From a plasmid: a stretch of 64,000 bases of DNA. How positions within the stretch are numbered: position 1 is the first letter of the stretch; each line of letters opens with the position of its first letter. A program made the position numbers and the translations under genes. The notes beneath the pieces were generated by a model. That model was not told the origin of the DNA. It saw only the letters and a list, made by a program, of their open reading frames with translations, and ran no database searches. Shown piece after piece: positions 3,109 through 44,272 of this stretch. The stretch lies in the sequence record NZ_LR134445.1. One strand, written 5' to 3'.

Positions 3109-3198
3109 GGAGGCGTGCCAGAGCGGCCGAATGGGACTCACTGCTAATGAGTTGTCCGGCCAACACCGGACCGGAGGTTCAAATCCTCTCGCCTCCGC
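3109..3198 (+). tRNA. tRNA-Ser (anticodon GCU)
   Basis: Cloverleaf read by eye: acceptor GGAGGCG/CGCCTCC, anticodon stem ACTCA/TGAGT, loop CUGCUAA, long variable arm, T-loop GGTTCAAATCC, 3' CCA encoded. Confidence 0.85.
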
Positions 3199-3238
3199 CA
3201 CGTCGGTCTTCGGACCGGCGAGAATTGAATATGGGTAT

Positions 3239-3311
3239 GCGCCCGTAGCTCAGTGGATAGAGCATCTGACTACGGATCAGAAGGTCAGGGGTTCGAATCC
3301 CTTCGGGCGCA
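3239..3311 (+). tRNA. tRNA-Arg (anticodon ACG)
   Basis: GCGCCCGTAGCTCAGTGGATAGAGCATCTGACTACGGATCAGAAGGTCAGGGGTTCGAATCCCTTCGGGCGCA, anticodon loop CUACGGA. Confidence 0.9.
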
Positions 3312-3319
3312 CAGTGACG

Positions 3320-3378: not shown

Positions 3379-5022
3379 TCAGCCCTGGATCCGCTGGTGC
3401 CTGTCGGCCCACTCCGCGTCGCGGAGCTGCTTCTTCTGGATCTTCCCGGTCGAGTTGCGGGGGAGTTCGGGGACGACGGCGAAGACCCGCGGCGCCTTGA
3501 AGCCGGCGATCCGCTCGCGGGCGTGCGCGGAGAGTTCCTCCTCGTCGACCGACGACCCCGGCCGCAGGACGACGAAAGCCTTGGGGCGCTCTCCCCACTT
3601 CTCGTCGGGGATCCCGACGACGGCGACGTCCACCACCGCGGGATGGCTCGCGAGCGCCTGCTCCACCTCGATCGTGGAGATGTTCTCCCCGCCGGAGATG
3701 ATGACGTCCTTCGCCCGGTCGAGCAGTTGGACGTAGCCGTTCGGATGCATCACGCCGAGGTCGCCGGAGTGGAACCAGCCGCCGGCGAAGGCCTCGTCCG
3801 TGCGCTCGTCGTCGAGGTAGTAGCCCTTCATGACCATGTTTCCGCGCATCACGATCTCGCCCATCTCCGTGCCGTCCGGCGTGACGTCGACGAGGGCACC
3901 GTCGGAACCCGGTTCCGGGCGGACGACGCGGGCGCGGTCGGCGGTGAGCATGCCGACGCCCTGCCGCGCGAGCAGTCGCGGCAGTTCCTCGGCGGCGACG
4001 CCGGACCAGCTCGGGTCCGGCTCGCAGATCGTGTACGGCCCGTACGTCTCGGTCAGGCCGTAGACGTGGATGAGCTGAACGCCCAGGGCCCGCACCGCCG
4101 CGATGAGAGTGGGGCTCGGGGGCGCGGCCGCGGTGGTGACGGTGAGGACCCGATCCAGCGGGTGCGCCCGCTCGGAGGCGATCAAGAACGACAACACGGT
4201 CGGGGCGCCGTTGAGGTGGGTGATCCCCTCGCCGTCGATGAGCGCCCACATGTCGTCGCCGCGCACGGCGCGCAGGCACACCTGGGTCCCGGCCGCAGCC
4301 GCGACCGCCCAGGCGCCGCACCAGCCGTTGCAGTGGAACATGGGAAGCGTCCACAGGTACTTCGTGTCGATGCCGAAGCCGCTGTGGTGCACGTTGCCGA
4401 GGGCCGCGAGATAGGCGCCCCGGTGGGTGTACATGACGCCCTTCGGCTTCCCGGTGGTACCCGAGGTGTAGTTGATCGAGATCACCGAATCCTCATCGTC
4501 CACCTCCCACGGGAGCGGCGCATTGGAACCGCGGGCGAGCAGATCGGCGTAACTGGTCCCAGCGCCGGTGTACGCGCCGTCCTGCGCGGGCAGTTCGATG
4601 ACCTCGCGGATCGTGACCGGCTGCTGATCGGCGAGGGGAGCGAGCAGGGGCGCGTCGCCGAGGAGGATCGCCGCACCGGAATGCCCGCAGATGTAGGCGA
4701 CTTCGTCGGGCGAGAGGCGGGTGTTCGTGGCGACGAGCACGCCCCCGGCGAGCGGGACGGCGAAGTGCGCGACGAGGAGTTCGAGCGAGTTCGTCGCGAG
4801 GTAGGCCACCCGGTCGCCGGCCTCGATACCCGACGCGCGCAGAGCGTGCGCGAGGCGTGTGACGTGCGCGGCCAGCTCACGGTAGGTCGACCGGCGGTCG
4901 CCGTCCACCACGGCGGCGTGGTCGGGATGGACCTCCGCGGCGCGGCCGAGGAAGCGCAACGGCGTCAGCGGGGTGTCGAGGCCGGACCGCTGGGAGACGG
5001 AGCCGATAAGCGATGCGTTCAT
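3379..5022 (-). CDS. AMP-forming acyl-CoA synthetase (medium-chain fatty acid-CoA ligase-like)
   Basis: TSGTTGKPKG AMP-binding motif, YGLTET, GWFHSGDLG, PRNSTGKIQK. Start at MNASL preceded by AAGGAG RBS. Confidence 0.85.
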   Translation of the reverse strand: MNASLIGSVSQRSGLDTPLTPLRFLGRAAEVHPDHAAVVDGDRRSTYRELAAHVTRLAHALRASGIEAGDRVAYLATNSLELLVAHFAVPLAGGVLVATNTRLSPDEVAYICGHSGAAILLGDAPLLAPLADQQPVTIREVIELPAQDGAYTGAGTSYADLLARGSNAPLPWEVDDEDSVISINYTSGTTGKPKGVMYTHRGAYLAALGNVHHSGFGIDTKYLWTLPMFHCNGWCGAWAVAAAAGTQVCLRAVRGDDMWALIDGEGITHLNGAPTVLSFLIASERAHPLDRVLTVTTAAAPPSPTLIAAVRALGVQLIHVYGLTETYGPYTICEPDPSWSGVAAEELPRLLARQGVGMLTADRARVVRPEPGSDGALVDVTPDGTEMGEIVMRGNMVMKGYYLDDERTDEAFAGGWFHSGDLGVMHPNGYVQLLDRAKDVIISGGENISTIEVEQALASHPAVVDVAVVGIPDEKWGERPKAFVVLRPGSSVDEEELSAHARERIAGFKAPRVFAVVPELPRNSTGKIQKKQLRDAEWADRHQRIQG

Positions 5023-24735: not shown

Positions 24736-24823
24736 GGTGGCGTGTCCGAGCGGCCGAAGGTGCAGCACTCGAAATGCTGTGTGCGGTAACCCCGTACCGA
24801 GGGTTCAAATCCCTCCGCCACCG
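24736..24823 (+). tRNA. tRNA-Ser (anticodon CGA)
   Basis: Acceptor GGTGGCG/CGCCACC, anticodon stem CAGCA/TGCTG, loop CUCGAAA, long variable arm, T-loop GGTTCAAATCC. Confidence 0.85.
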
Positions 24824-25488
24824 CTGAGAGAGACCCTCTCCGACCCCGGTCGGAGGGGGTCTTTCCCGTTCCGGGCCCGGGTGCCCGGCGTGCGGCGCCG
24901 CGGGGTTCGCCGCAGCCACCACTCGCAGAAGCCGATCGCGATCAGCCAGCTCGGCCACGCGACGATCGCCGGCCCCCACGAGTCCATGAAGGACTCCGGC
25001 ACCCCGGCGGCGTCGAGGACGAGGAACGAGATCGGGCCCAGGATCCGGTTGATGATCACCGAGTACATGAGCGCCGCGCTGCGCAGCATCCAGCGACGGT
25101 GGGCCGCCACGTCGCCGCCGACGATCGCCCGCACACCGAGCGCCGTGAACAGCAGCATCAGCGAGCCCAGCGTCACGTTGGACGCGGCGTTGACCGGCCC
25201 GAACGGCGTCACCGTGCCGATCGCGATGGCCGCGAGCCCGACGGGCAGCGCGCACGCGACGTAGATCCGGCCCGCGATCCAGTGGTACTTCGCGAACCAG
25301 CGGCGGCCCAGCTGCACCAGCCCGGCGAGCATCGCGACGGAGCCGAGCAGGATGTGCCCGACGAGCAGCCCGTAGTACCAGTTCGGCTGGTCGTCGAGCG
25401 GCACCCGGCTGCCGCCCGTGAGGTATGGGGGAAGGGAGTAGGCGAGGAAGACGAGCACCAGCAGGGCGCCCACCAGCAGTTTCTTCAT
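24805..25488 (-). CDS. DUF2306-like membrane protein
   Basis: 227 aa with 5-6 hydrophobic helices. Its C-terminal 19 nt overlap the 3' end of the tRNA-Ser gene. Confidence 0.55.
   Translation of the reverse strand: MKKLLVGALLVLVFLAYSLPPYLTGGSRVPLDDQPNWYYGLLVGHILLGSVAMLAGLVQLGRRWFAKYHWIAGRIYVACALPVGLAAIAIGTVTPFGPVNAASNVTLGSLMLLFTALGVRAIVGGDVAAHRRWMLRSAALMYSVIINRILGPISFLVLDAAGVPESFMDSWGPAIVAWPSWLIAIGFCEWWLRRTPRRRTPGTRARNGKDPLRPGSERVSLSGGGGI
24831..24864. terminator. Rho-independent terminator after tRNA-Ser(CGA)
   Basis: AGACCCTCTCCGACC-CCGG-TCGGAGGGGGTCT followed by TTT. Confidence 0.55.
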
Positions 25489-26436: not shown

Positions 26437-26818
26437 AGAAGCCGATCGCCTTGTCGCCGCTGTCGCAGCGCGCGAGCATGCCGGGGGTCTGCGGGAACGT
26501 GCAGTTCCAGCCCTCGACGGTGGCGGGCTTCGCCATCGCGATCTGCGGTCCGAAGGCGTTGGCGACGCGCATGGCCTCGGCGCAGTCGACCTTCGTGGTG
26601 CCCAGCGCGTGCACGTACAGGGCGCCGTCGGGGCCGCGGGTCTGCCCGCACATCTCGGCGCGGGTCTCGGCCACCGTCGTCGTGGCCGACGGTGCGCCGG
26701 ACGGCGCGGGGCTCGCGGCCGGGTCGGAGGAACTGCCGCAGCCCGCGAGGAGCAGGCCGCACACTGTTGCAGTTGCGACGGCTGTGACAGGCGTTGCGAA
26801 GTGCTGAAATGCGGTCAT
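26423..26818 (-). CDS. Lipoprotein (132 aa)
   Basis: Signal peptide plus lipobox LLAGC (MTAFQHFATPVTAVATATVCGLLLAGCGSS). Confidence 0.55.
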   Translation of the reverse strand: MTAFQHFATPVTAVATATVCGLLLAGCGSSSDPAASPAPSGAPSATTTVAETRAEMCGQTRGPDGALYVHALGTTKVDCAEAMRVANAFGPQIAMAKPATVEGWNCTFPQTPGMLARCDSGDKAIGFFSSH

Positions 26819-26961
26819 GCCCTGCACGCTACCCGCGAACTGGTGATGAGCCTCACAAAAGTGCCGGTCAGCGACATTATTGCGGGCGGCAACGATCGGT
26901 ACACTCGACAGCGACCCGTATCGCGCAGCCCGTCGCGCCTCGACGACCTGGAGTGACTCGC

Positions 26962-29900
26962 ATGGCACTGTTCCTGTACCGGCTGGGGAGGTTCGCCTAC
27001 CTCAACCGCTTCAAAGTCATCGTGGCGTGGCTGCTGATCTTCGCCGGCATGCTCACCGGCGGCGCGCTTCTCAAGGGCGCCACGGTCGACAACTTCTCCC
27101 TGCCGGGTCTTCCCTCGGCGAAGGCGACGGACATCGTCTCCGAGAACTTCGGCGACAGCGGCGGCGACCCGTTCACCACCGCCTCGGCGACCATCGTCTT
27201 CCACACCAAGGACGGCAAGCTCACCGATCCGGCGGCCGCGGCGGGCATCGACCGCACGATCGCCGACCTCAAGAACCTCACCAAGGACCAGGACGGCCGT
27301 CAGGTCTCCGTGGTCCAGGATCCGGAGCTCCTGCACAACCCGACGGGCAAGCTGGACACCGACGCGCTGACGCCGGAGCAGCGCTCGAAGCTCGAGGCGG
27401 TCGCGGCGCAGGGCAAGGACATCGCGTCGACCAAGACGCAGGCGCAGAAGGACGCCGACGCGGCGGCCACCTCGTCGGTGAGCCCCGACGGCAAGACCGC
27501 CAAGATCACGGTCGACTTCGTCGGCAAGGTCACGGAGCTGCCGGACACCCTGTCCGAGGACATCAAGAAGGCCCGCGAGGCCGGCGAGGCCGCGTCGAAC
27601 GGCACGCTGCAGGTCGAGGCCGACGGTTCCGCCGCCCGCGGTGCCGAGGACATGGGCATGACCAGCGAGATCATCGGCATGATCGTCGCGGCGATCGTCC
27701 TGATCATCACCTTCGCCTCGCTCGTCGCCTGGGGCCTGCCGCTGCTGAACGCGATCATCGCGGTCCCGGTGGCCATCGGCGGCGTCATGATCGCCTCGCA
27801 CTTCATCGAGCTCGGCACCTTCCCCACGGTCCTGACCTCGATGATCGGCCTGGCCGTCACCATCGACTACGCGCTGTTCATCGTGTCCCGGTACCGGCAC
27901 GAACTGCGGCGCCTCGGCGCCACCACCAAGGAGCAGCGGGCCGAGGCCGCGGGCATCGCCGTCGGCACCGCCGGCACCGCCGTGATCTTCGCCGGCCTGA
28001 CGGTGATCATCGCGCTCGCCGCGCTCGCCTTCATCGGCATGGACTTCCTCGGTCAGATGGGCGTCGCCGCCGCGTGGGGCGTGTTCATCGCCGTCATCGT
28101 GGCGCTGACGCTGCTCCCGGCCCTGCTGGGCCTGTTCGGCTCCAAGGTCTTCGCCGGCCGGGTCAAGGGCCTGCATCCGCAGGACACGGACCAGGGCGAG
28201 GGCCGCGTCGCCAACGGCCTGCGCTGGGCCAACCTGGTCAAGAAGGTTCCCGTCGTGACCCTCGTCGCGGGCGTCGCCATCCTCGGCATCCTCGCCATCC
28301 CGATGAAGGACATGAAGACCGCCCTGCCCGGCTCGGGCATGAGCGAGAAGAGCACGTCGGAGCGCCAGGCCTACGACCTCATCTCCGACGCCTGGGGCAA
28401 GGGCGCCAACGGCACCCTCCTCGTCGCGGTCGACGGTGCCGGGGCCCAGCCGAACCAGCGCCTGGGCGCCTACAAGCAGATCGTCGACCAGCTCAACACC
28501 AACCCCAACATCGCGCCGCTCATCGCGAACGCGCAGCTCGCCCAACTCGCGCAGGACAACAAGGCCGCCACCATCATGGTGACGCCCAAGTCCGGCCCGA
28601 ACGACGACGACACCAAGACGCTGGTCACCAAGCTCCGCACCATGACCAACGGTGACGCCGGCACGAAGGCGCGGCTCGGCGTGGACCTCGGCGTCGCGGG
28701 CAGCACGGCCATCGAGATGGACATCTCGGAGAAACTCGGCGACGCGCTGTGGATCTACCTCGGAATCGTCGTGGGTCTGGCGTTCCTGCTGCTGCTCGTC
28801 GCCTTCCGCTCGATCCTGGTGCCGCTCACCGCGGTTCTGGGCTTCCTGCTGTCCGTCGTCGCCACGTTCGGCGTCACCTCCGCGATCTTCACCGACGGTG
28901 CCCTCGGCCTCATCGACAACACGCAGCCGCTGGTCTCGTTCCTGCCGATCTTCCTGATCGGCATCGTCTTCGGCCTCGCGATGGACTACCAGGTCTTCCT
29001 CGTCTCCCGGATGCGCGAGGAGTTCGTGCACACCGGCGACGCCACACAGTCCGTGGTGACGGGCGTGCAGTACGGCGCCCGTGTGGTGACCGCCGCTGCG
29101 ATCATCATGATCTCGGTCTTCGCCTCGTTCATCCTCAACGAGCAGGTCTTCATCAAGGAGATCGGCTTCGGCCTCGCCGCGGCCGTGCTGCTCGACGCCT
29201 TCGTCGTGCGGATGGTCCTGATCCCGTCGGTGATGATGCTGCTCGGCAAGTGGGCGTGGTGGCTGCCGAAGTGGCTCGACAAGATCCTGCCGAACGTCGA
29301 CATCGAGGGCGAGGCGCTCGTCGCCCAGCTCGGCCGCGGCGACGCGAACGCCGATACCGCCGCGATCCCCGCGCCGATCACGGCCGAGATCCCGGTGCCC
29401 ACCGAGCAGCTCGTGGCCGCCGGTGCGACCGATGTCCACGCCCGCGGCAAGGCGCGCGTCGAGCACGCCGGCGTGAACGGCCACACCAACGGCACCACCA
29501 ACGGTGCCGCCCACGGTGCCGAGCTCCCGACGGCCGCCCCGACGGTGCCCGTGCCGCTGCCCCTCGGCAAGGACGACGAGCACGTCACGGAGCAGGCACC
29601 GGTGTACGCGGACACGGAGCAGGTCGCCACGGCGGAGGCGGACGCGGCGGAGGCCGGCGCACCGGACACCGCCGAGTACCCGGTCGCGCGTCCGGGCGTC
29701 CCGCGCCCCGACCAGACCGCGACGGGCCCGATCCGCCCGCGCGACCGGACCCGCGACGAGATCGCGCAGCTGCGCGAGCAGAACAAGGCGATCGCGGCGG
29801 AGCTCAGCGCGCTGCGCTCTGACTACCGGTCGATGGCCAGCCGCACGCGACTGCAGAGCGAGCACATCAGCGATCCCACGCGGTTCGAGATCGAGGGTCG

Positions 29901-31134
29901 CCTCGAGGGGCCCGACGGTCCGCTCGGCCGCGCCGGCCGGCTGCTCACGCCGCACGGCGAGATGCTCACCCCCGCGTTCATCCCCGTCGGCACCAAGGCG
30001 ACGGTGAAGACCGTACTGCCCGAGGCGGTCTCGGAGCTGGGCGCGCAGGCGGTGCTGGCGAACGCCTACCACCTGTACCTGCAGCCCGGACCGGAGATCG
30101 TGGAGCAGGCCGGCGGCCTCGGCGCGTTCATGAACTGGGACGGTCCCACCTTCACCGATTCCGGTGGCTTCCAGGTGATGTCGCTCGGGTCGGGGTTCAA
30201 GAAGGTCATCGACATGACCGGCGGCGAGGAACTGCAGGGCGACGACGCGATCGCCGAGGGCAAGGACCGTCTCTCCCGCGTCGACGACGACGGCGTGACC
30301 TTCCTCAGCCACCTCGACGGCACCGAGCACCGGTTCACTCCGGAGCGGTCGATGCAGATCCAGCACCAGCTCGGCGCCGACGTGATCTTCGCGTTCGACG
30401 AGCTGACCACCCTGCACAACACCCGCGCGTACCAGGTGGAGTCGCTGGAGCGGACCCGCCTGTGGGCGCGGCGCTGCCTCTCCGAGCACAACTGGCTCAC
30501 CGCGCAGCGGCACGATGCGATCTCGCTGTGGGGCGTCGTGCAGGGCGCGCAGTACGAGGACCTGCGCCGCAAGGCCGCCCGCGACCTGCGGGCGCTGAGC
30601 GAGGAGGACCGGTTCTCCGGCGGCCTCGGCTTCGGCGGCTACGGCATCGGCGGGGCGCTGGAGAAGGCGAACCTGTCGACCATCGTGCGCTGGGTGAACC
30701 AGGAGCTCGAGGAGGACAAGCCGAAGCACCTGCTGGGCATCTCCGAGCCGGACGACATCTTCGCCGCGGTGGAGCAGGGCATCGACACGTTCGACTGCGT
30801 CTCCCCGTCGCGGGTGGCCCGCAACGGCGCGATCTACTCGCTCGACGGCCGCTACAACGTGACCAATTCGCGGTTCAAGACGGACTTCCGCCCGCTGGAC
30901 CCGGACACGCAGAACTACACCTCGCAGTACACCCGCGCGTACATCCATCACCTGTTCAAGGCGAAGGAGGGCCTCGCGGCCACGCTGTGCACCATCCATA
31001 ACGAGCAGTTCGTCGTCTCCCTGGTCGCGAAGATCCGGCAGTCGATGATCGACGGGACGTACTGGGACTTCAAGGAGGAGTTCCTGGGGCGCTACTACAA
31101 GGGCACCCAGCAGCACCTCGCCAAGTCCGACTAG
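26962..31134 (+). CDS. MmpL-family RND transporter fused in-frame to a C-terminal TGT-like (queuine tRNA-ribosyltransferase fold) domain, ~1390 aa
   Basis: Single stop-free ORF (track 26794..31134). Residues 1-~780 have 12 TM helices and two periplasmic loops typical of MmpL. A GC3-biased Ala/Pro/Thr-rich linker with a heptad-like segment (DEIAQLREQNKAIAAELSALRSDY) follows. The last ~420 aa carry TGT motifs: TPAFIPVGT, ANAYHLYLQPG, TDSGGFQ, LGADVIFAFDE, WGVVQGAQYEDLR, GIDTFDCV, RAYIHHL. Confidence 0.8.
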   Translation: MALFLYRLGRFAYLNRFKVIVAWLLIFAGMLTGGALLKGATVDNFSLPGLPSAKATDIVSENFGDSGGDPFTTASATIVFHTKDGKLTDPAAAAGIDRTIADLKNLTKDQDGRQVSVVQDPELLHNPTGKLDTDALTPEQRSKLEAVAAQGKDIASTKTQAQKDADAAATSSVSPDGKTAKITVDFVGKVTELPDTLSEDIKKAREAGEAASNGTLQVEADGSAARGAEDMGMTSEIIGMIVAAIVLIITFASLVAWGLPLLNAIIAVPVAIGGVMIASHFIELGTFPTVLTSMIGLAVTIDYALFIVSRYRHELRRLGATTKEQRAEAAGIAVGTAGTAVIFAGLTVIIALAALAFIGMDFLGQMGVAAAWGVFIAVIVALTLLPALLGLFGSKVFAGRVKGLHPQDTDQGEGRVANGLRWANLVKKVPVVTLVAGVAILGILAIPMKDMKTALPGSGMSEKSTSERQAYDLISDAWGKGANGTLLVAVDGAGAQPNQRLGAYKQIVDQLNTNPNIAPLIANAQLAQLAQDNKAATIMVTPKSGPNDDDTKTLVTKLRTMTNGDAGTKARLGVDLGVAGSTAIEMDISEKLGDALWIYLGIVVGLAFLLLLVAFRSILVPLTAVLGFLLSVVATFGVTSAIFTDGALGLIDNTQPLVSFLPIFLIGIVFGLAMDYQVFLVSRMREEFVHTGDATQSVVTGVQYGARVVTAAAIIMISVFASFILNEQVFIKEIGFGLAAAVLLDAFVVRMVLIPSVMMLLGKWAWWLPKWLDKILPNVDIEGEALVAQLGRGDANADTAAIPAPITAEIPVPTEQLVAAGATDVHARGKARVEHAGVNGHTNGTTNGAAHGAELPTAAPTVPVPLPLGKDDEHVTEQAPVYADTEQVATAEADAAEAGAPDTAEYPVARPGVPRPDQTATGPIRPRDRTRDEIAQLREQNKAIAAELSALRSDYRSMASRTRLQSEHISDPTRFEIEGRLEGPDGPLGRAGRLLTPHGEMLTPAFIPVGTKATVKTVLPEAVSELGAQAVLANAYHLYLQPGPEIVEQAGGLGAFMNWDGPTFTDSGGFQVMSLGSGFKKVIDMTGGEELQGDDAIAEGKDRLSRVDDDGVTFLSHLDGTEHRFTPERSMQIQHQLGADVIFAFDELTTLHNTRAYQVESLERTRLWARRCLSEHNWLTAQRHDAISLWGVVQGAQYEDLRRKAARDLRALSEEDRFSGGLGFGGYGIGGALEKANLSTIVRWVNQELEEDKPKHLLGISEPDDIFAAVEQGIDTFDCVSPSRVARNGAIYSLDGRYNVTNSRFKTDFRPLDPDTQNYTSQYTRAYIHHLFKAKEGLAATLCTIHNEQFVVSLVAKIRQSMIDGTYWDFKEEFLGRYYKGTQQHLAKSD

Positions 31135-32215: not shown

Positions 32216-32431
32216 ATGAGGATTCAGCAGATGAGGAAGGTCTTCGGCGGCACCCGGGCGGCCCCGACGACGAACCGGACCCTGGGATGGCTGCGGGAGT
32301 TCGCCTCCGGTGTCGCGGCGGGCAACCTCGTCCGGCACGGCGCCGGCGTGCCCGGCGCGCACGACTCGCGGATCTGCGAGCGGCCGCGGCTGGGCCCCGC
32401 TCCCGCTGGGCGGCACGCCTCAGAGCGGTAG
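32216..32431 (+). CDS. Small hypothetical ORF (71 aa), uncertain
   Basis: GC3-biased open frame in the convergent gap, overlaps gluQ 3' end by 12 nt. No homology recognised. Confidence 0.15.
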
Positions 32432-33277
32432 CGTCCAGGGCTCGCGCGGCAGCCGCGCGGGGTCGAAGTCGTCGAGCATCTCGCGCGGCGTGCGACCGCG
32501 CAGCCCCAGGCTCGCGGCCAACTCGGGGAGCACCACCGCCGGCCCGCCGCGCTCGGCGAGGGTGACGGCACCGTCGCGCTTCGCGAGCCGGACGCCGGTG
32601 GGCCCCAGCACCATCGGCACGTGGGCGTAGGTCGGAGGCGCCCCGCCGAGGAGGGTCGTCAGGTACGCCTGGCGGGGCGCGGAGGAGAGCAGGTCGTCGC
32701 CGCGCACCACCTGGTCGACACCCTGCGCGGCGTCGTCGACCACCACGGCCAGGTTGTAGGCGTACGTCCCGTCGCCCCGTCGCAGCACGACATCGTCCAC
32801 GGCACCGGTGTACTCGCCGTGCAGCAGATCCGTCACGGTGAACGACGGGACCGTCGCGCGCAGGCGCACCGCCGCCGGCCGCTCCCGCCGCCGGACCACC
32901 CGCTCGGCCTCCGTGAGGTCGCGGCAGGTGCCCGGGTACGCGCCCTCCGGCGCGTGCGGCGCCGACGGTGCGGCGAGGATCTCCCGCCGCGTGCAGTAGC
33001 ACTCGTAGACGTCGAGCCGCTCCAGCGCCGCCGCGTAGCGTGCGGTTCGCTCCGACTGCCGCACCGTCTCGCCGTCCCAGTCCAGGCCCAGCGCGGCGAG
33101 GTCGGCGAGCTGTCGCGCCTCGGCACCGTCGGCCGTGCGGCCGGTGTCCAGGTCCTCGACGCGCATCAGGAAGTCCCGCCCCGTCGAGCGGGCGAAGAGC
33201 CAGGCGAGCAGGGCTGTCCGCAGGTTGCCCACGTGCAGGTCGCCCGACGGGCTCGGCGCGTACCGTCCAGCTGTCAC
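32420..33277 (-). CDS. gluQ: Glutamyl-Q tRNA(Asp) synthetase (GluRS-like catalytic-domain paralogue)
   Basis: [19 protein letters not shown] (HIGH-type) motif, Zn-binding Cys cluster (YECYCTRRE...GTC), [14 protein letters not shown] (KMSKS-like), ~285 aa without an anticodon-binding domain. Confidence 0.85.
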
Positions 33278-42706: not shown

Positions 42707-42795
42707 TGGCGGAGGATAGGGGATTTGAACCCCTGAGGGCTATTAACCCAACCCGCGTTCCAGGCGAGCGCCATAGGCCACTAGGCGAATCCTCC
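42707..42795 (-). tRNA. tRNA-Ser (anticodon GGA)
   Basis: Reverse complement gives GGAGGATTCGCCTAGTGGCC...CGCCTGGAACGCGGG...GGTTCAAATCCCCTATCCTCCGCCA. Long variable arm, CCA encoded. Confidence 0.85.
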
Positions 42796-42886
42796 GTGGA
42801 CCACTGTAGACGAAGGCCCCCGTCGACCCAAACCAGCCCGGACCCGTATAGTGGTCCACGGACTCCGCGCGGCGTCCATCCTGTGA

Positions 42887-44272
<1,386 letters not shown>

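Follow-up and report, generated by a model that had tools for sequence, protein, structure and literature searches.

A tRNA-guanine transglycosylase domain without zinc-site cysteines, fused to an MMPL transporter in Tsukamurella

Canonical bacterial tRNA G34 transglycosylases (Tgt), such as those of Zymomonas mobilis and E. coli, combine a (beta/alpha)8 fold with a C-terminal subdomain carrying a Cys3His zinc site that was formerly described as absolutely conserved. Zinc-cysteine mutants of E. coli Tgt (in work by Chong et al. from 1995) reportedly lose both zinc binding and activity, which counts against zinc-free function. The enzyme has also been found joined to a membrane protein: an MMPL-TGT fusion was published in 2024 (Epigenomes 2024;8:16, Table S1; PMC11130926), where it served solely to propose MMPL as a candidate transporter of queuosine (Q) precursors, and the main text of that paper contains no occurrence of zinc. 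Failure of a C. propinquum MmpL to complement preQ0/preQ1 uptake in E. coli counts against the import proposal.

The window analyzed here is a stretch of 64,000 nucleotides from a plasmid (NZ_LR134445.1), and it encodes a member of the protein family represented in that study by Tpau_4044 (D5UNC0) and A0A1H5C6U4; the T. tyrosinosolvens entry in its table is the window's own product. The open reading frame (26794..31134, plus strand) has a translation that matches the one quoted in an earlier, sequence-only reading of this DNA. Within it, a single frame of 1390 codons plus stop (26962..31134, plus strand) specifies an MMPL transporter joined through a linker to a TGT domain; it is the ortholog of Tpau_4044 in Tsukamurella tyrosinosolvens. 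No stop codon separates the Pfam hit for MMPL from that for TGT, the frame is unbroken in five other Tsukamurella species, indels notwithstanding, and the 1390-residue product is an exact entry in GCA_900104775.1. The membrane transporter portion, of the RND superfamily (26962..29313, plus strand; PF03176, E = 2e-87), scores under the MmpL3 equivalog cut-off and is thus regarded as a generic MMPL. The Ala/Pro/Thr-rich linker (29314..29871, plus strand) is coding but weakly constrained, with a GC3 of 0.93-0.97 and every indel a multiple of three. Immediately 5′ of the TGT domain is a segment, TRDEIAQLREQNKAIAAELSALRSDYRS (29749..29832, plus strand), that is conserved in T. soli and also precedes the TGT-like domain in MFS-fused paralogs; it is probably helical as judged from its sequence, and could conceivably have a role in dimerization. 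The TGT domain itself comprises 420 in-frame residues (29872..31131, plus strand; PF01702, 379 bits). The sequence-only reading had placed its end correctly but its start at 29870, one base out of frame.

The former zinc site (30898..30999, plus strand) reads DPDTQNYTSQY...TIH, and its loss is agreed upon by three alignment approaches: pairwise to E. coli K-12 Tgt, HMMER to Z. mobilis TGT structures, and MAFFT across 83 loci plus Z. mobilis. In Z. mobilis numbering, Cys318 is replaced by Thr (codon 30907-30909) and Cys320 by Asn (30913-30915), and the fourth ligand, His349, is retained (30997-30999); in the pairwise alignment, LDPDTQNYTSQ-YTRAYIHHL...CTIHN lies opposite ...NTIHN of the E. coli enzyme. 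The earlier proposal that the three cysteines had become Thr, Asn and Ser, with the histidine kept, is therefore borne out, with Cys323 either deleted or opposite Ser, depending on the placement of a one-residue gap. Because the loop holds no cysteine at all, a reading in which the ligands are present but shifted is excluded.

Loss of the zinc cysteines is fixed in 34 sequences from four genera (Tsukamurella, Gordonia, Williamsia and Jongsikchunia), which form one clade (bootstrap 86/100) in a neighbor-joining tree built with the zinc-loop columns removed; it is a single event common to all of them and no product of chance or decay. Their closest relatives, in Rhodococcus, Mycobacterium, Nakamurella and Rothia, retain CxCxxC...H. 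Among the Cys-less sequences, position 318 may be L, T, I or V, a variability to be anticipated of a residue engaged in packing and not of one that ligates metal; Asn320 and His349 are invariant (34/34), and a change from Ile to Gly at position 340 co-varies with the loss. The cysteines are also missing from about 19% of related TGT cluster representatives, Devosia included, and since 20 such representatives outside the clade, Devosia among them, have intact catalytic residues, the TGT fold evidently tolerates the loss.

It might be argued that a metal is still bound by His349 and, in place of thiolates, by the carboxylate and Asn side chains close to it (D316, E317, D/E319, N320), as the invariance of His349 and Asn320 and the acidic flanks in LDP(E/D)x(E/D/Q)N could suggest. 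This arrangement seems unlikely, however. Identical acidic residues occur in the Cys-containing relatives and so do not constitute a new ligand set, position 318 is aliphatic in 22/30 loci, one loop residue is deleted, the glycine at 340 suggests tighter packing, and other zinc-less lineages, for example Devosia (S-N-C-I), have dispensed with the histidine as well. The C-terminal subdomain most likely folds zinc-free, the Cys3His site having presumably been replaced in the common ancestor of the four genera by an aliphatic residue or Thr at 318, the invariant Asn320, the loss of one residue at 323 and Gly340 as a compensating change.

The remainder of the enzyme appears to be intact. An AF2 model of the TGT domain (pLDDT 82) superposes on Z. 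mobilis TGT with a TM of 0.92 and an rmsd of 2.2 A; the former zinc subdomain is modeled at pLDDT 83-96, and the base pocket region less confidently, at about 70. The dimer-interface residues K52, F92, W95, Y330, H333 and E339 are all kept, as are R286 and R289, which, like the interface, are used in tRNA binding. Neither these residues nor the superposition lends support to the altered dimerization or tRNA-binding mode that had been suggested. The 83 loci show no variation in the catalytic, base-binding and dimer-interface residues, among them the Asp equivalent to D102 in TDSGGFQ (30157..30159, plus strand) and the nucleophile D280 in GIDTFDCV (30793..30795, plus strand), each found in 83/83; D156, Q203 (30541-30543) and G229/G230 are likewise retained. 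Between Tsukamurella species, dN/dS is 0.06-0.10 for the TGT domain, against 0.14-0.24 for the MMPL portion and 0.12-0.38 for the linker, and purifying selection on the domain is strong. It also exceeds the cut-off of TIGR00430, the NCBIfam Tgt equivalog (381.5 bits; cut-off 306.75). The view that this is not a decayed pseudo-domain is thus upheld, and an active enzyme is predicted. As one polypeptide with the transporter, the domain could instead be imagined to have no catalytic function and to serve MMPL as a ligand sensor or regulator, but this is the least probable of the readings weighed here, given the invariant catalytic residues, a dN/dS below that of the other two parts, the stand-alone orthologs lacking a transporter in Gordonia, Williamsia and Rhodococcus, and the different appearance of truly degenerate TGT-like paralogs in the same genus.

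Several features of the pocket differ from the canonical enzyme. In the D156-E-L158 motif (30397..30405, plus strand), the base-binding Asp is kept (30397-30399) and the preQ1-selective Cys158 is Leu (30403-30405), as had been recognized; Leu158 is present in 76/83 loci, with Cys158 limited to Nakamurella and some MAGs. Tyr106 is Phe. The GGALEK pocket loop (30649..30666, plus strand), three residues shorter than the canonical GGLAVGE, with gap placement that differs between alignments, is common to the whole actinobacterial Tgt subfamily, and "GGALE" was already noted for the Nakamurella TGT (PMC11570991). An alignment gap in the loop following the DSGGFQ motif marks an insertion, KKVIDMTGGEELQGDDAIAEGKDR (30199..30270, plus strand), which stands after DSGGFQVMSLGSGF, represents unaligned query residues 110-133 in the HMMER alignment to Z. 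mobilis structures, and measures 24 residues, close to the estimate of about 25. It is modeled at pLDDT < 50 and occurs in every actinobacterial ortholog whose sequence was read, Cys-containing or Cys-less, with some positions invariant. As far as the alignments indicate, Leu158, Phe106, GGALEK and the insertion belong to the actinobacterial subfamily as a whole, are unrelated to zinc loss and appear in part in the literature; they do not mark this domain as divergent. Nor is the domain strongly diverged, since it shares 64-71% identity with its ordinary Cys-containing actinobacterial orthologs (Rhodococcus, Mycobacterium/Mycolicibacterium, Nakamurella, Rothia), the figure being 65-70% for those of Rhodococcus and Mycobacterium. 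It falls inside actinobacterial tgt, and its substitutions are widespread in the subclade, as the sequence-only reading had allowed for, though not already characterized.

The neighborhood points to queuosine. At 1.3 kb from the TGT domain is gluQ (32420..33277, minus strand), encoding tRNA glutamyl-Q(34) synthetase (GluQRS; NF004315, 311, cut-off 250; TIGR03838, 299, cut-off 276.7). GluQRS glutamylates queuosine on tRNA-Asp, modifying the cyclopentenediol of full queuosine. The tgt gene is syntenic with gluQ and tadA, and a gluQ homolog lies ~0.1-8 kb downstream of it in 62/83 loci. Strong purifying selection, the TM of 0.92 and the proximity of gluQ therefore make a working, zinc-free tRNA G34 transglycosylase the most likely identity of the domain; on balance, it is probably an ordinary Tgt ortholog, predicted to insert salvaged queuine. 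No QueA homolog occurs in the window or in any flank. Gordoniaceae have 64 TGT against 1 QueA, 0 QueG and 0 QueH (PMC11570991 Table S1), and Mycobacteriales retain tgt alone, with queuine-type specificity predicted (PMC11570991, PMC11130926). Retention of tgt without queA, queG and queH, together with the adjacent gluQ, is the reason for regarding queuine as the most likely base.

Conceivably, the enzyme could insert preQ1 (or preQ0), with the tRNA halting at preQ1 as proposed for Bartonella; Bartonella and Pelagibacter have tgt alone and yet use preQ1 (PMC11570991). GGALEK, moreover, does not match the published q-type pocket signature, GG[LS][AS]G, and when queuine was docked into a published Nakamurella model, the loop clashed with it at a distance of 1.8 A, such that queuine binding would need a loop rearrangement. 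Still, selectivity for preQ1 is conferred by Cys145/158 and queuine is favored by a hydrophobic Val (PMC3074131), and here Leu takes the place of the selective cysteine and the GGLAVGE loop has been remodeled; GluQRS beside tgt would be pointless were the tRNA halted at preQ1. This outcome consequently has only a small chance of being correct, and a base change to queuine is plausible from the sequences.

The suggestion of a different substrate thus survives as regards the base, but not as regards the nucleic acid. Re-purposing for DNA (as in DpdA), for a different RNA or for a small molecule in free form might be read into the lost zinc site, the transporter fusion and the insertion next to the lid of the active site, and is nonetheless very unlikely. 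The domain scores 16.7 bits with the DpdA model (cut-off 200) and 108 with the archaeosine model (cut-off 350); the flanks of the orthologous locus in T. ocularis, as annotated with Pfam, contain no dpd-type genes; unfused, Cys-containing orthologs have the same insertion and pocket; and the tRNA-binding residues, dimer interface and synteny with gluQ and tadA are retained. Furthermore, no canonical Tgt able to take over the tRNA function came to light: a second TGT homolog is missing from the window, and base-binding residues are degenerate in the only further TGT-family genes observed in Tsukamurella.

In the favored scheme, a zinc-free Tgt inserting queuine, catalysis would proceed as in the canonical homodimer, with D280 attacking C1′ of G34, D102 acting as general acid/base, and the 7-deazaguanine held by D156, Q203 and G230. 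Queuine from outside the cell would most likely be inserted, yielding Q34 directly, which GluQRS may then glutamylate on tRNA-Asp. In Tsukamurella, the enzyme would be translated as the cytoplasmic C-terminus of the MMPL transporter, the proposed importer of a queuosine precursor.

Relative to canonical bacterial Tgt, with which it shares 37-40% identity, its overall fold and all of the catalytic, base-binding and interface residues listed above, the window domain lacks Cys318/Cys320/Cys323, carries the altered residues 158 and 106, the shortened loop and the insertion, has no adjacent queA and, in Tsukamurella, is fused to a transporter. The Cys-containing actinobacterial enzymes likewise have the insertion, Phe106, GGALEK, the gluQ neighborhood and, in most cases, Leu158, and differ from the window clade in having CxCxxC rather than (T/I/L/V)-x-N with a one-residue deletion, [AT][HN] rather than [ST]Q, and Met/Ile340 rather than Gly340. 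Queuine-inserting TGTs (Chlamydia trachomatis bTGT; eukaryotic QTRT1) likewise have a non-Cys hydrophobic residue at 158, Phe106 in the case of QTRT1, and tgt without queA/G/H, matching the lifestyle predicted for the window lineage; their GG[LS][AS]G signature differs from GGALEK, however, and QTRT1 and QTRT2 retain the zinc site. Incomplete zinc sites are also found in phage 9g DpdA, Devosia Tgt and Candidatus Kaiserbacteria Tgt, lineages independent of the window clade that further illustrate the tolerance of the fold. Phage DpdA acts on DNA, and Devosia Tgt resembles the window domain in having Asn at position 320, but has kept the canonical preQ1 pocket (C158, GGLAVGE) and lost His349. 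Overall, loss of the TGT zinc cysteines is recurrent and apparently unreported, representing a structural variant of a known enzyme rather than a new kind.

The TGT domain occupies window positions 29872 to 31131 on the plus strand, in DNA whose high-GC base composition is that of actinobacteria. The sequence-only reading had found the right place, although the start it gave, 29870, is out of frame and the domain reads in frame from 29872. Its principal claim, that this TGT-like domain lacks all three zinc-binding cysteines, was confirmed by three independent alignments (HMMER against the Z. mobilis TGT structures, BLASTP against E. coli K-12 Tgt, and MAFFT over 83 actinobacterial tgt loci with Z. 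mobilis TGT), and the residue coordinates were checked by translation. All three agree that the zinc loop, LDPDTQNYTSQ-YTRAYIHHL...TIHN, contains no cysteines; the aligned region of E. coli K-12 Tgt likewise ends in TIHN. In the Z. mobilis numbering used throughout, C318 is replaced by Thr and C320 by Asn, and C323 is either a one-residue deletion or Ser, depending on gap placement. From the ligand set Cys318, Cys320, Cys323 and His349 (bioRxiv 10.1101/2020.09.01.277731; PMC5699537), described as “absolutely conserved” in all three domains of life (PMC3074131), only His349 is left. In our reading the zinc site is a conserved hallmark and not a prerequisite for catalysis; because the domain is clearly orthologous to cysteine-containing Tgt (identity 65-70%, shared synteny), it is filed on its sequence as a zinc-site-free variant of the Tgt family.

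The catalytic apparatus is intact. The catalytic residues D280 (nucleophile) and D102 (general acid/base), and the base-recognition residues D156, Q203 and G229/G230, are all present in the window domain and are invariant across the 83 loci. The base-binding pocket is altered, with Cys158 replaced by Leu, Tyr106 by Phe, and a loop (GGALEK) three residues shorter than the GGLAVGE of the reference. The preQ1-selective pocket, defined by Cys158 and the Leu231-Ala232-Val233-Gly234-Glu235 loop, is thus not found, the residue correspondence here being ambiguous among the three aligners. A 24-aa insertion follows DSGGFQVMSLGSGF. At the sequence level, the domain retains the dimer-interface residues K52, F92, W95, Y330, H333 and E339 together with R286 and R289 (roles as given in bioRxiv 10.1101/2020.09.01.277731 and PMC5699537); against the interface set Lys52/Phe92/Trp326/Tyr330/His333/Glu339, the only change is W326 to Tyr, shared by all the actinobacterial members. 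With these interface residues and both arginines retained, the proposal of a new mode of dimerization or tRNA binding is unsupported.

Family placement points to an ordinary Tgt ortholog. The domain scores 381.5 bits against the NCBIfam Tgt equivalog TIGR00430 (cut-off 306.75) and 379 bits against PF01702 (cut-off 26.3). An AF2 model of the domain (pLDDT 82) superposes on Z. mobilis TGT with a TM-score of 0.92 and an rmsd of 2.2 A over ~410 columns, predicting the TIM-barrel TGT fold with its attached C-terminal subdomain. Residues 321-410, which span the former zinc subdomain, are modeled at pLDDT 83-96, the pocket loop at ~70, and the insertion below 50. The sequence-only reading had raised the possibility of a non-tRNA substrate, which finds no support: the profile of DpdA, the DNA 7-deazaguanine transglycosylase (NF041059), yields 16.7 bits, its cut-off being 200, and the Pfam-annotated flanks of the T. 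ocularis ortholog show no dpd-type neighborhood, tgt being accompanied there by genes for an AraC/DJ-1 regulator, gluQ, tadA (upstream), tyrA and ligD. Archaeosine TGT (TgtA), which carries C1, C2 and PUA domains, was likewise rejected, with 108 bits against a TIGR00432 cut-off of 350 and a protein that ends ~10 aa past the TGT domain. A non-catalytic TGT-like subunit of the QTRT2 type was ruled out by the retention of all catalytic and base-binding residues. New enzymatic activity is not indicated on present evidence.

Comparison across actinobacteria separates what is particular to this gene from what is shared. Sequence identity of the window domain is 97% with T. ocularis Tgt and 64-78% with the Tgt proteins of Gordonia, Williamsia, Rhodococcus, Mycobacterium, Nakamurella, Rothia and Kocuria. 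Phe106, GGALEK and, for the most part, Leu158 are common to the whole 83-locus set, and all ortholog sequences that were read carry the insertion; judged from these alignments, all four are traits of an actinobacterial Tgt subfamily rather than of the window gene. The earlier bundling of “divergent” features had therefore conflated a subfamily-wide signature with a zinc loss specific to one clade. To our knowledge, this subfamily has so far received no biochemical characterization.

Among the features compared over the 83 loci, the zinc ligands alone divide the set. C-C-C-H is found at the zinc positions of 53 loci; the other 30, from Tsukamurella, Gordonia, Williamsia and one contig labeled Kitasatospora, have (L/T/I/V)318, N320, an empty position 323 and H349. 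Two further changes co-vary with zinc loss, [AT][HN] to [ST]Q at 324/325 and Met/Ile340 to Gly. A neighbor-joining tree was built without the zinc-loop columns and with 13 additional outgroups. In it, the 34 cysteine-less sequences (the 30 loci plus four further Tsukamurella and Jongsikchunia sequences) form one clade with bootstrap support of 86/100, and this monophyly indicates a single ancestral loss. A first tree, rooted on Z. mobilis and including degenerate paralogs, rendered the cysteine-less set paraphyletic, an arrangement we judge to be long-branch attraction.

The Kitasatospora contig (NZ_JNYV01000002.1, labeled Kitasatospora arboriphila; locus L006) carries a Williamsia-like cysteine-less tgt, 77% identical to the window domain, with MMPL upstream and gluQ downstream, which is unexpected in a Streptomycetaceae genome. 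A mislabeled or contaminated assembly, or horizontal transfer, is the likely cause.

Similar losses can be found elsewhere in the family. An exhaustive HMMER search covered 1.84 billion cluster representatives, of which the 150 closest were examined; 112 of these are full-length with D102, D156, Q203, G230 and D280 intact, and 21 of the 112 retain at most one of the three cysteines. Only one of the 21 belongs to the window's own clade, and zinc-site loss is therefore recurrent. Devosia Tgt (P0194/P0278, a cluster of 358 members) pairs a canonical preQ1 pocket with S-N-C-I at the zinc positions, and Candidatus Kaiserbacteria Tgt (P0127) has T-S-G-H; by sequence, the cysteine losses in these and 18 other representatives fall in independent, unrelated lineages. 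Phage 9g DpdA is missing two of the four zinc ligands (PMC5699537). Open-access papers and bioRxiv yielded no description of a zinc-free TGT, and the main texts of PMC11130926 and PMC11570991 do not mention zinc. Recurrent loss of the TGT zinc site thus appears to be unreported so far.

In E. coli Tgt, mutation of the zinc ligands reportedly destroys activity. Between Tsukamurella species, dN/dS is 0.06-0.10 for the TGT domain, lower than the 0.14-0.24 of the MMPL domain, with 0.12-0.38 for the linker; these values and the invariant catalytic residues lead us to reject a pseudogene. An assembly artifact is rejected as well, the cysteine-less state being common to 34 independent genomes. The earlier description of the domain as active and not decayed is supported by the intact catalytic residues, the low dN/dS and the passing of the Tgt equivalog cut-off. 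Transglycosylase function has probably been conserved despite loss of the zinc site.

The open reading frame that contains the domain (26794..31134, plus strand) encodes an MMPL transporter domain and the TGT domain in a single frame. The fusion gene (26962-31134, plus strand) begins at an ATG at 26962 (MALFLYRLGRF) with GGAG 10 nt upstream and yields a product of 1390 aa, which is on record in identical form from Tsukamurella tyrosinosolvens GCA_900104775.1. GC3 is continuous along the fusion, with linker values of 0.93-0.97 and no drop between MMPL and TGT, and the arrangement is conserved in six Tsukamurella species, with no intervening stop in T. ocularis, T. conjunctivitidis, T. sputi, T. 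pseudospumae and T. soli. Lengths vary between species with the frame kept, so all indels are multiples of three. PGAP-type records instead call a Tgt of 426-436 aa and leave the ~3-kb MMPL part without a gene, using in T. ocularis an internal ATG that corresponds to 29833. An independently initiated, stand-alone Tgt of this kind is unlikely, because GC3 is continuous, the ATG at 29833 has no Shine-Dalgarno sequence in the window, and T. soli lacks that ATG. The fusion itself is already published: Tpau_4044 (D5UNC0) and the 1390-aa protein of T. tyrosinosolvens both appear in PMC11130926, where MMPL is put forward as a candidate transporter of Q precursors. There, C. propinquum MmpL did not complement preQ0/preQ1 uptake in E. 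coli, with expression problems as a possible cause.

Two additional features of the fusion locus can be noted. In T. soli (locus L083, 3020-7281), a frameshift near 3760-4117 splits MMPL, leaving the remaining MMPL, the linker and TGT in one frame; this is either a sequencing error or the onset of decay in the transporter half. The ~260 nt located 5′ of the fusion gene (window ~26700-26961) are 86-95% identical across five Tsukamurella species, a conservation at least as high as that of synonymous sites. This stretch contains an intergenic leader of ~140 nt and, at its far end, runs into the divergent gene upstream. A search here for a riboswitch, whether of the preQ1 or another class, gave no Rfam match; the stretch may act as a promoter or operator, or encode a leader RNA not described so far.

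Downstream of tgt, at a distance of 1.3 kb, is gluQ (32420-33277, minus strand), which encodes a 285-aa GluQRS that passes two NCBIfam equivalog cut-offs. In 62 of the 83 loci, from the cysteine-less and cysteine-containing groups alike, tgt is followed by a GluQRS homolog at a distance of ~0.1-8 kb. GluQRS glutamylates queuosine-34 of tRNA-Asp and needs the full queuosine side chain. Its conservation beside tgt suggests that the window Tgt produces Q34 directly from queuine, and the predicted reaction is exchange of G34 in tRNA Asp/Asn/His/Tyr. The accessible parts of two papers on these proteins contain no mention of the gluQ-tgt linkage. No QueA homolog was found in the window or in the 83 loci with ±10 kb flanks, in agreement with published comparative genomics, in which the Gordoniaceae counts are 64 TGT, 1 QueA, 0 QueG and 0 QueH (PMC11570991). 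Replacement of Cys158 fits direct use of queuine, since this residue (E. coli Cys145) selects preQ1, and the eukaryotic Val favors queuine (PMC3074131). The pocket signature of the C. trachomatis-type queuine-salvage TGT, GG[LS][AS]G (PMC11570991), differs from the GGALEK of the window domain. In a published Nakamurella model, the GGALEK loop is 1.8 A from docked queuine. The changed base specificity suggested by the sequence-only reading is thus plausible but not new, having been predicted earlier by others, and queuine salvage in these organisms, like the fusion, is an idea already in print.

The window also contains tRNA-Ser(GCT), tRNA-Arg(ACG), tRNA-Ser(CGA), tRNA-Ser(GGA) and the small SRP RNA (3109-3312, 24736-24824, 42707-42795, 42857-42951). 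None of these four tRNAs is a queuosine substrate.

The mechanism that we propose starts from a Tgt active site that is intact and a dimer interface that is retained, from the absence of thiolate ligands and from linkage to gluQ, in a clade where the cysteine-less state is fixed under purifying selection. The C-terminal subdomain would fold without zinc. Position 318 would serve as a variable packing residue, aliphatic or Thr, the invariant Asn320 and His349 would probably be hydrogen-bonded, and the deletion at 323 together with Gly340 would pack the loop more closely onto the helix. The enzyme would then swap G34 of tRNA Asp/Asn/His/Tyr for imported queuine, with tRNA-Asp subsequently modified by GluQRS. 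In Tsukamurella, Tgt would act while tethered to the MMPL transporter.

A natural clade of at least 34 species, and about one-fifth of the related cluster representatives, have an intact active site without the zinc ligands, which makes the zinc site a structural brace that can be replaced rather than a requirement of the fold. This contradicts the textbook statement of “absolute conservation” and calls for caution in annotation rules and inhibitor design that presume a zinc subdomain. For structural biologists, Asn320, His349, the one-residue deletion and Gly340 represent a natural “rescue” solution. The predicted direct salvage of queuine bears on micronutrient competition by soil and opportunistic-pathogen actinobacteria.

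Tsukamurella also contains degenerate relatives of the domain. The twelve closest protein clusters in the search (48-95% identity; Tsukamurella wherever named, four being unnamed metagenomic clusters) represent a TGT-like paralog specific to Tsukamurella, of the Tpau_0550 type, whose fusion partner is an MFS (DHA2) transporter (P0308, P0143, P0323-P0333, P0135). In this paralog D102, D280 and the Y330/H333 dimer-interface helix remain; D156, Q203 and the GG motif are gone, and there are no cysteines. In MMPL and MFS fusions alike, the TGT domain is preceded by a segment of the form E(I/L)xxLRxxNxxLAAELxxLRxxYR (in the window, TRDEIAQLREQNKAIAAELSALRSDYRS at 29749-29832, immediately before the domain). 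Its presence in both suggests that helix and TGT domain were duplicated as one unit, and from its sequence the segment may serve pairing as a coiled coil. A second, less diverged paralog type (P0121 from T. soli, P0333 from an unclassified Tsukamurella) is 58% identical to the window domain, with D102 changed to Glu, Q203 to Gly and GG to AD/TG; this brings the TGT-family genes of T. soli to three.

By analogy, the MFS-fused paralog may be a QTRT2-like partner. On a more speculative and rather improbable reading, MMPL-TGT would pair with the MFS-fused degenerate domain instead of forming a homodimer, through the Y330/H333 interface and the preceding helix, as a membrane-anchored bacterial counterpart of QTRT1-QTRT2; if true, such a heterodimer would couple queuine uptake directly to tRNA insertion. 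The occurrence of MMPL-TGT alongside a degenerate MFS-fused TGT-like protein in Tsukamurella resembles the pairing of catalytic and non-catalytic subunits in eukaryotic QTRT1/QTRT2, and the loss of catalytic and base-binding residues with retention of the interface that characterizes QTRT2 is the pattern of the MFS-fused paralogs, not of the window domain.
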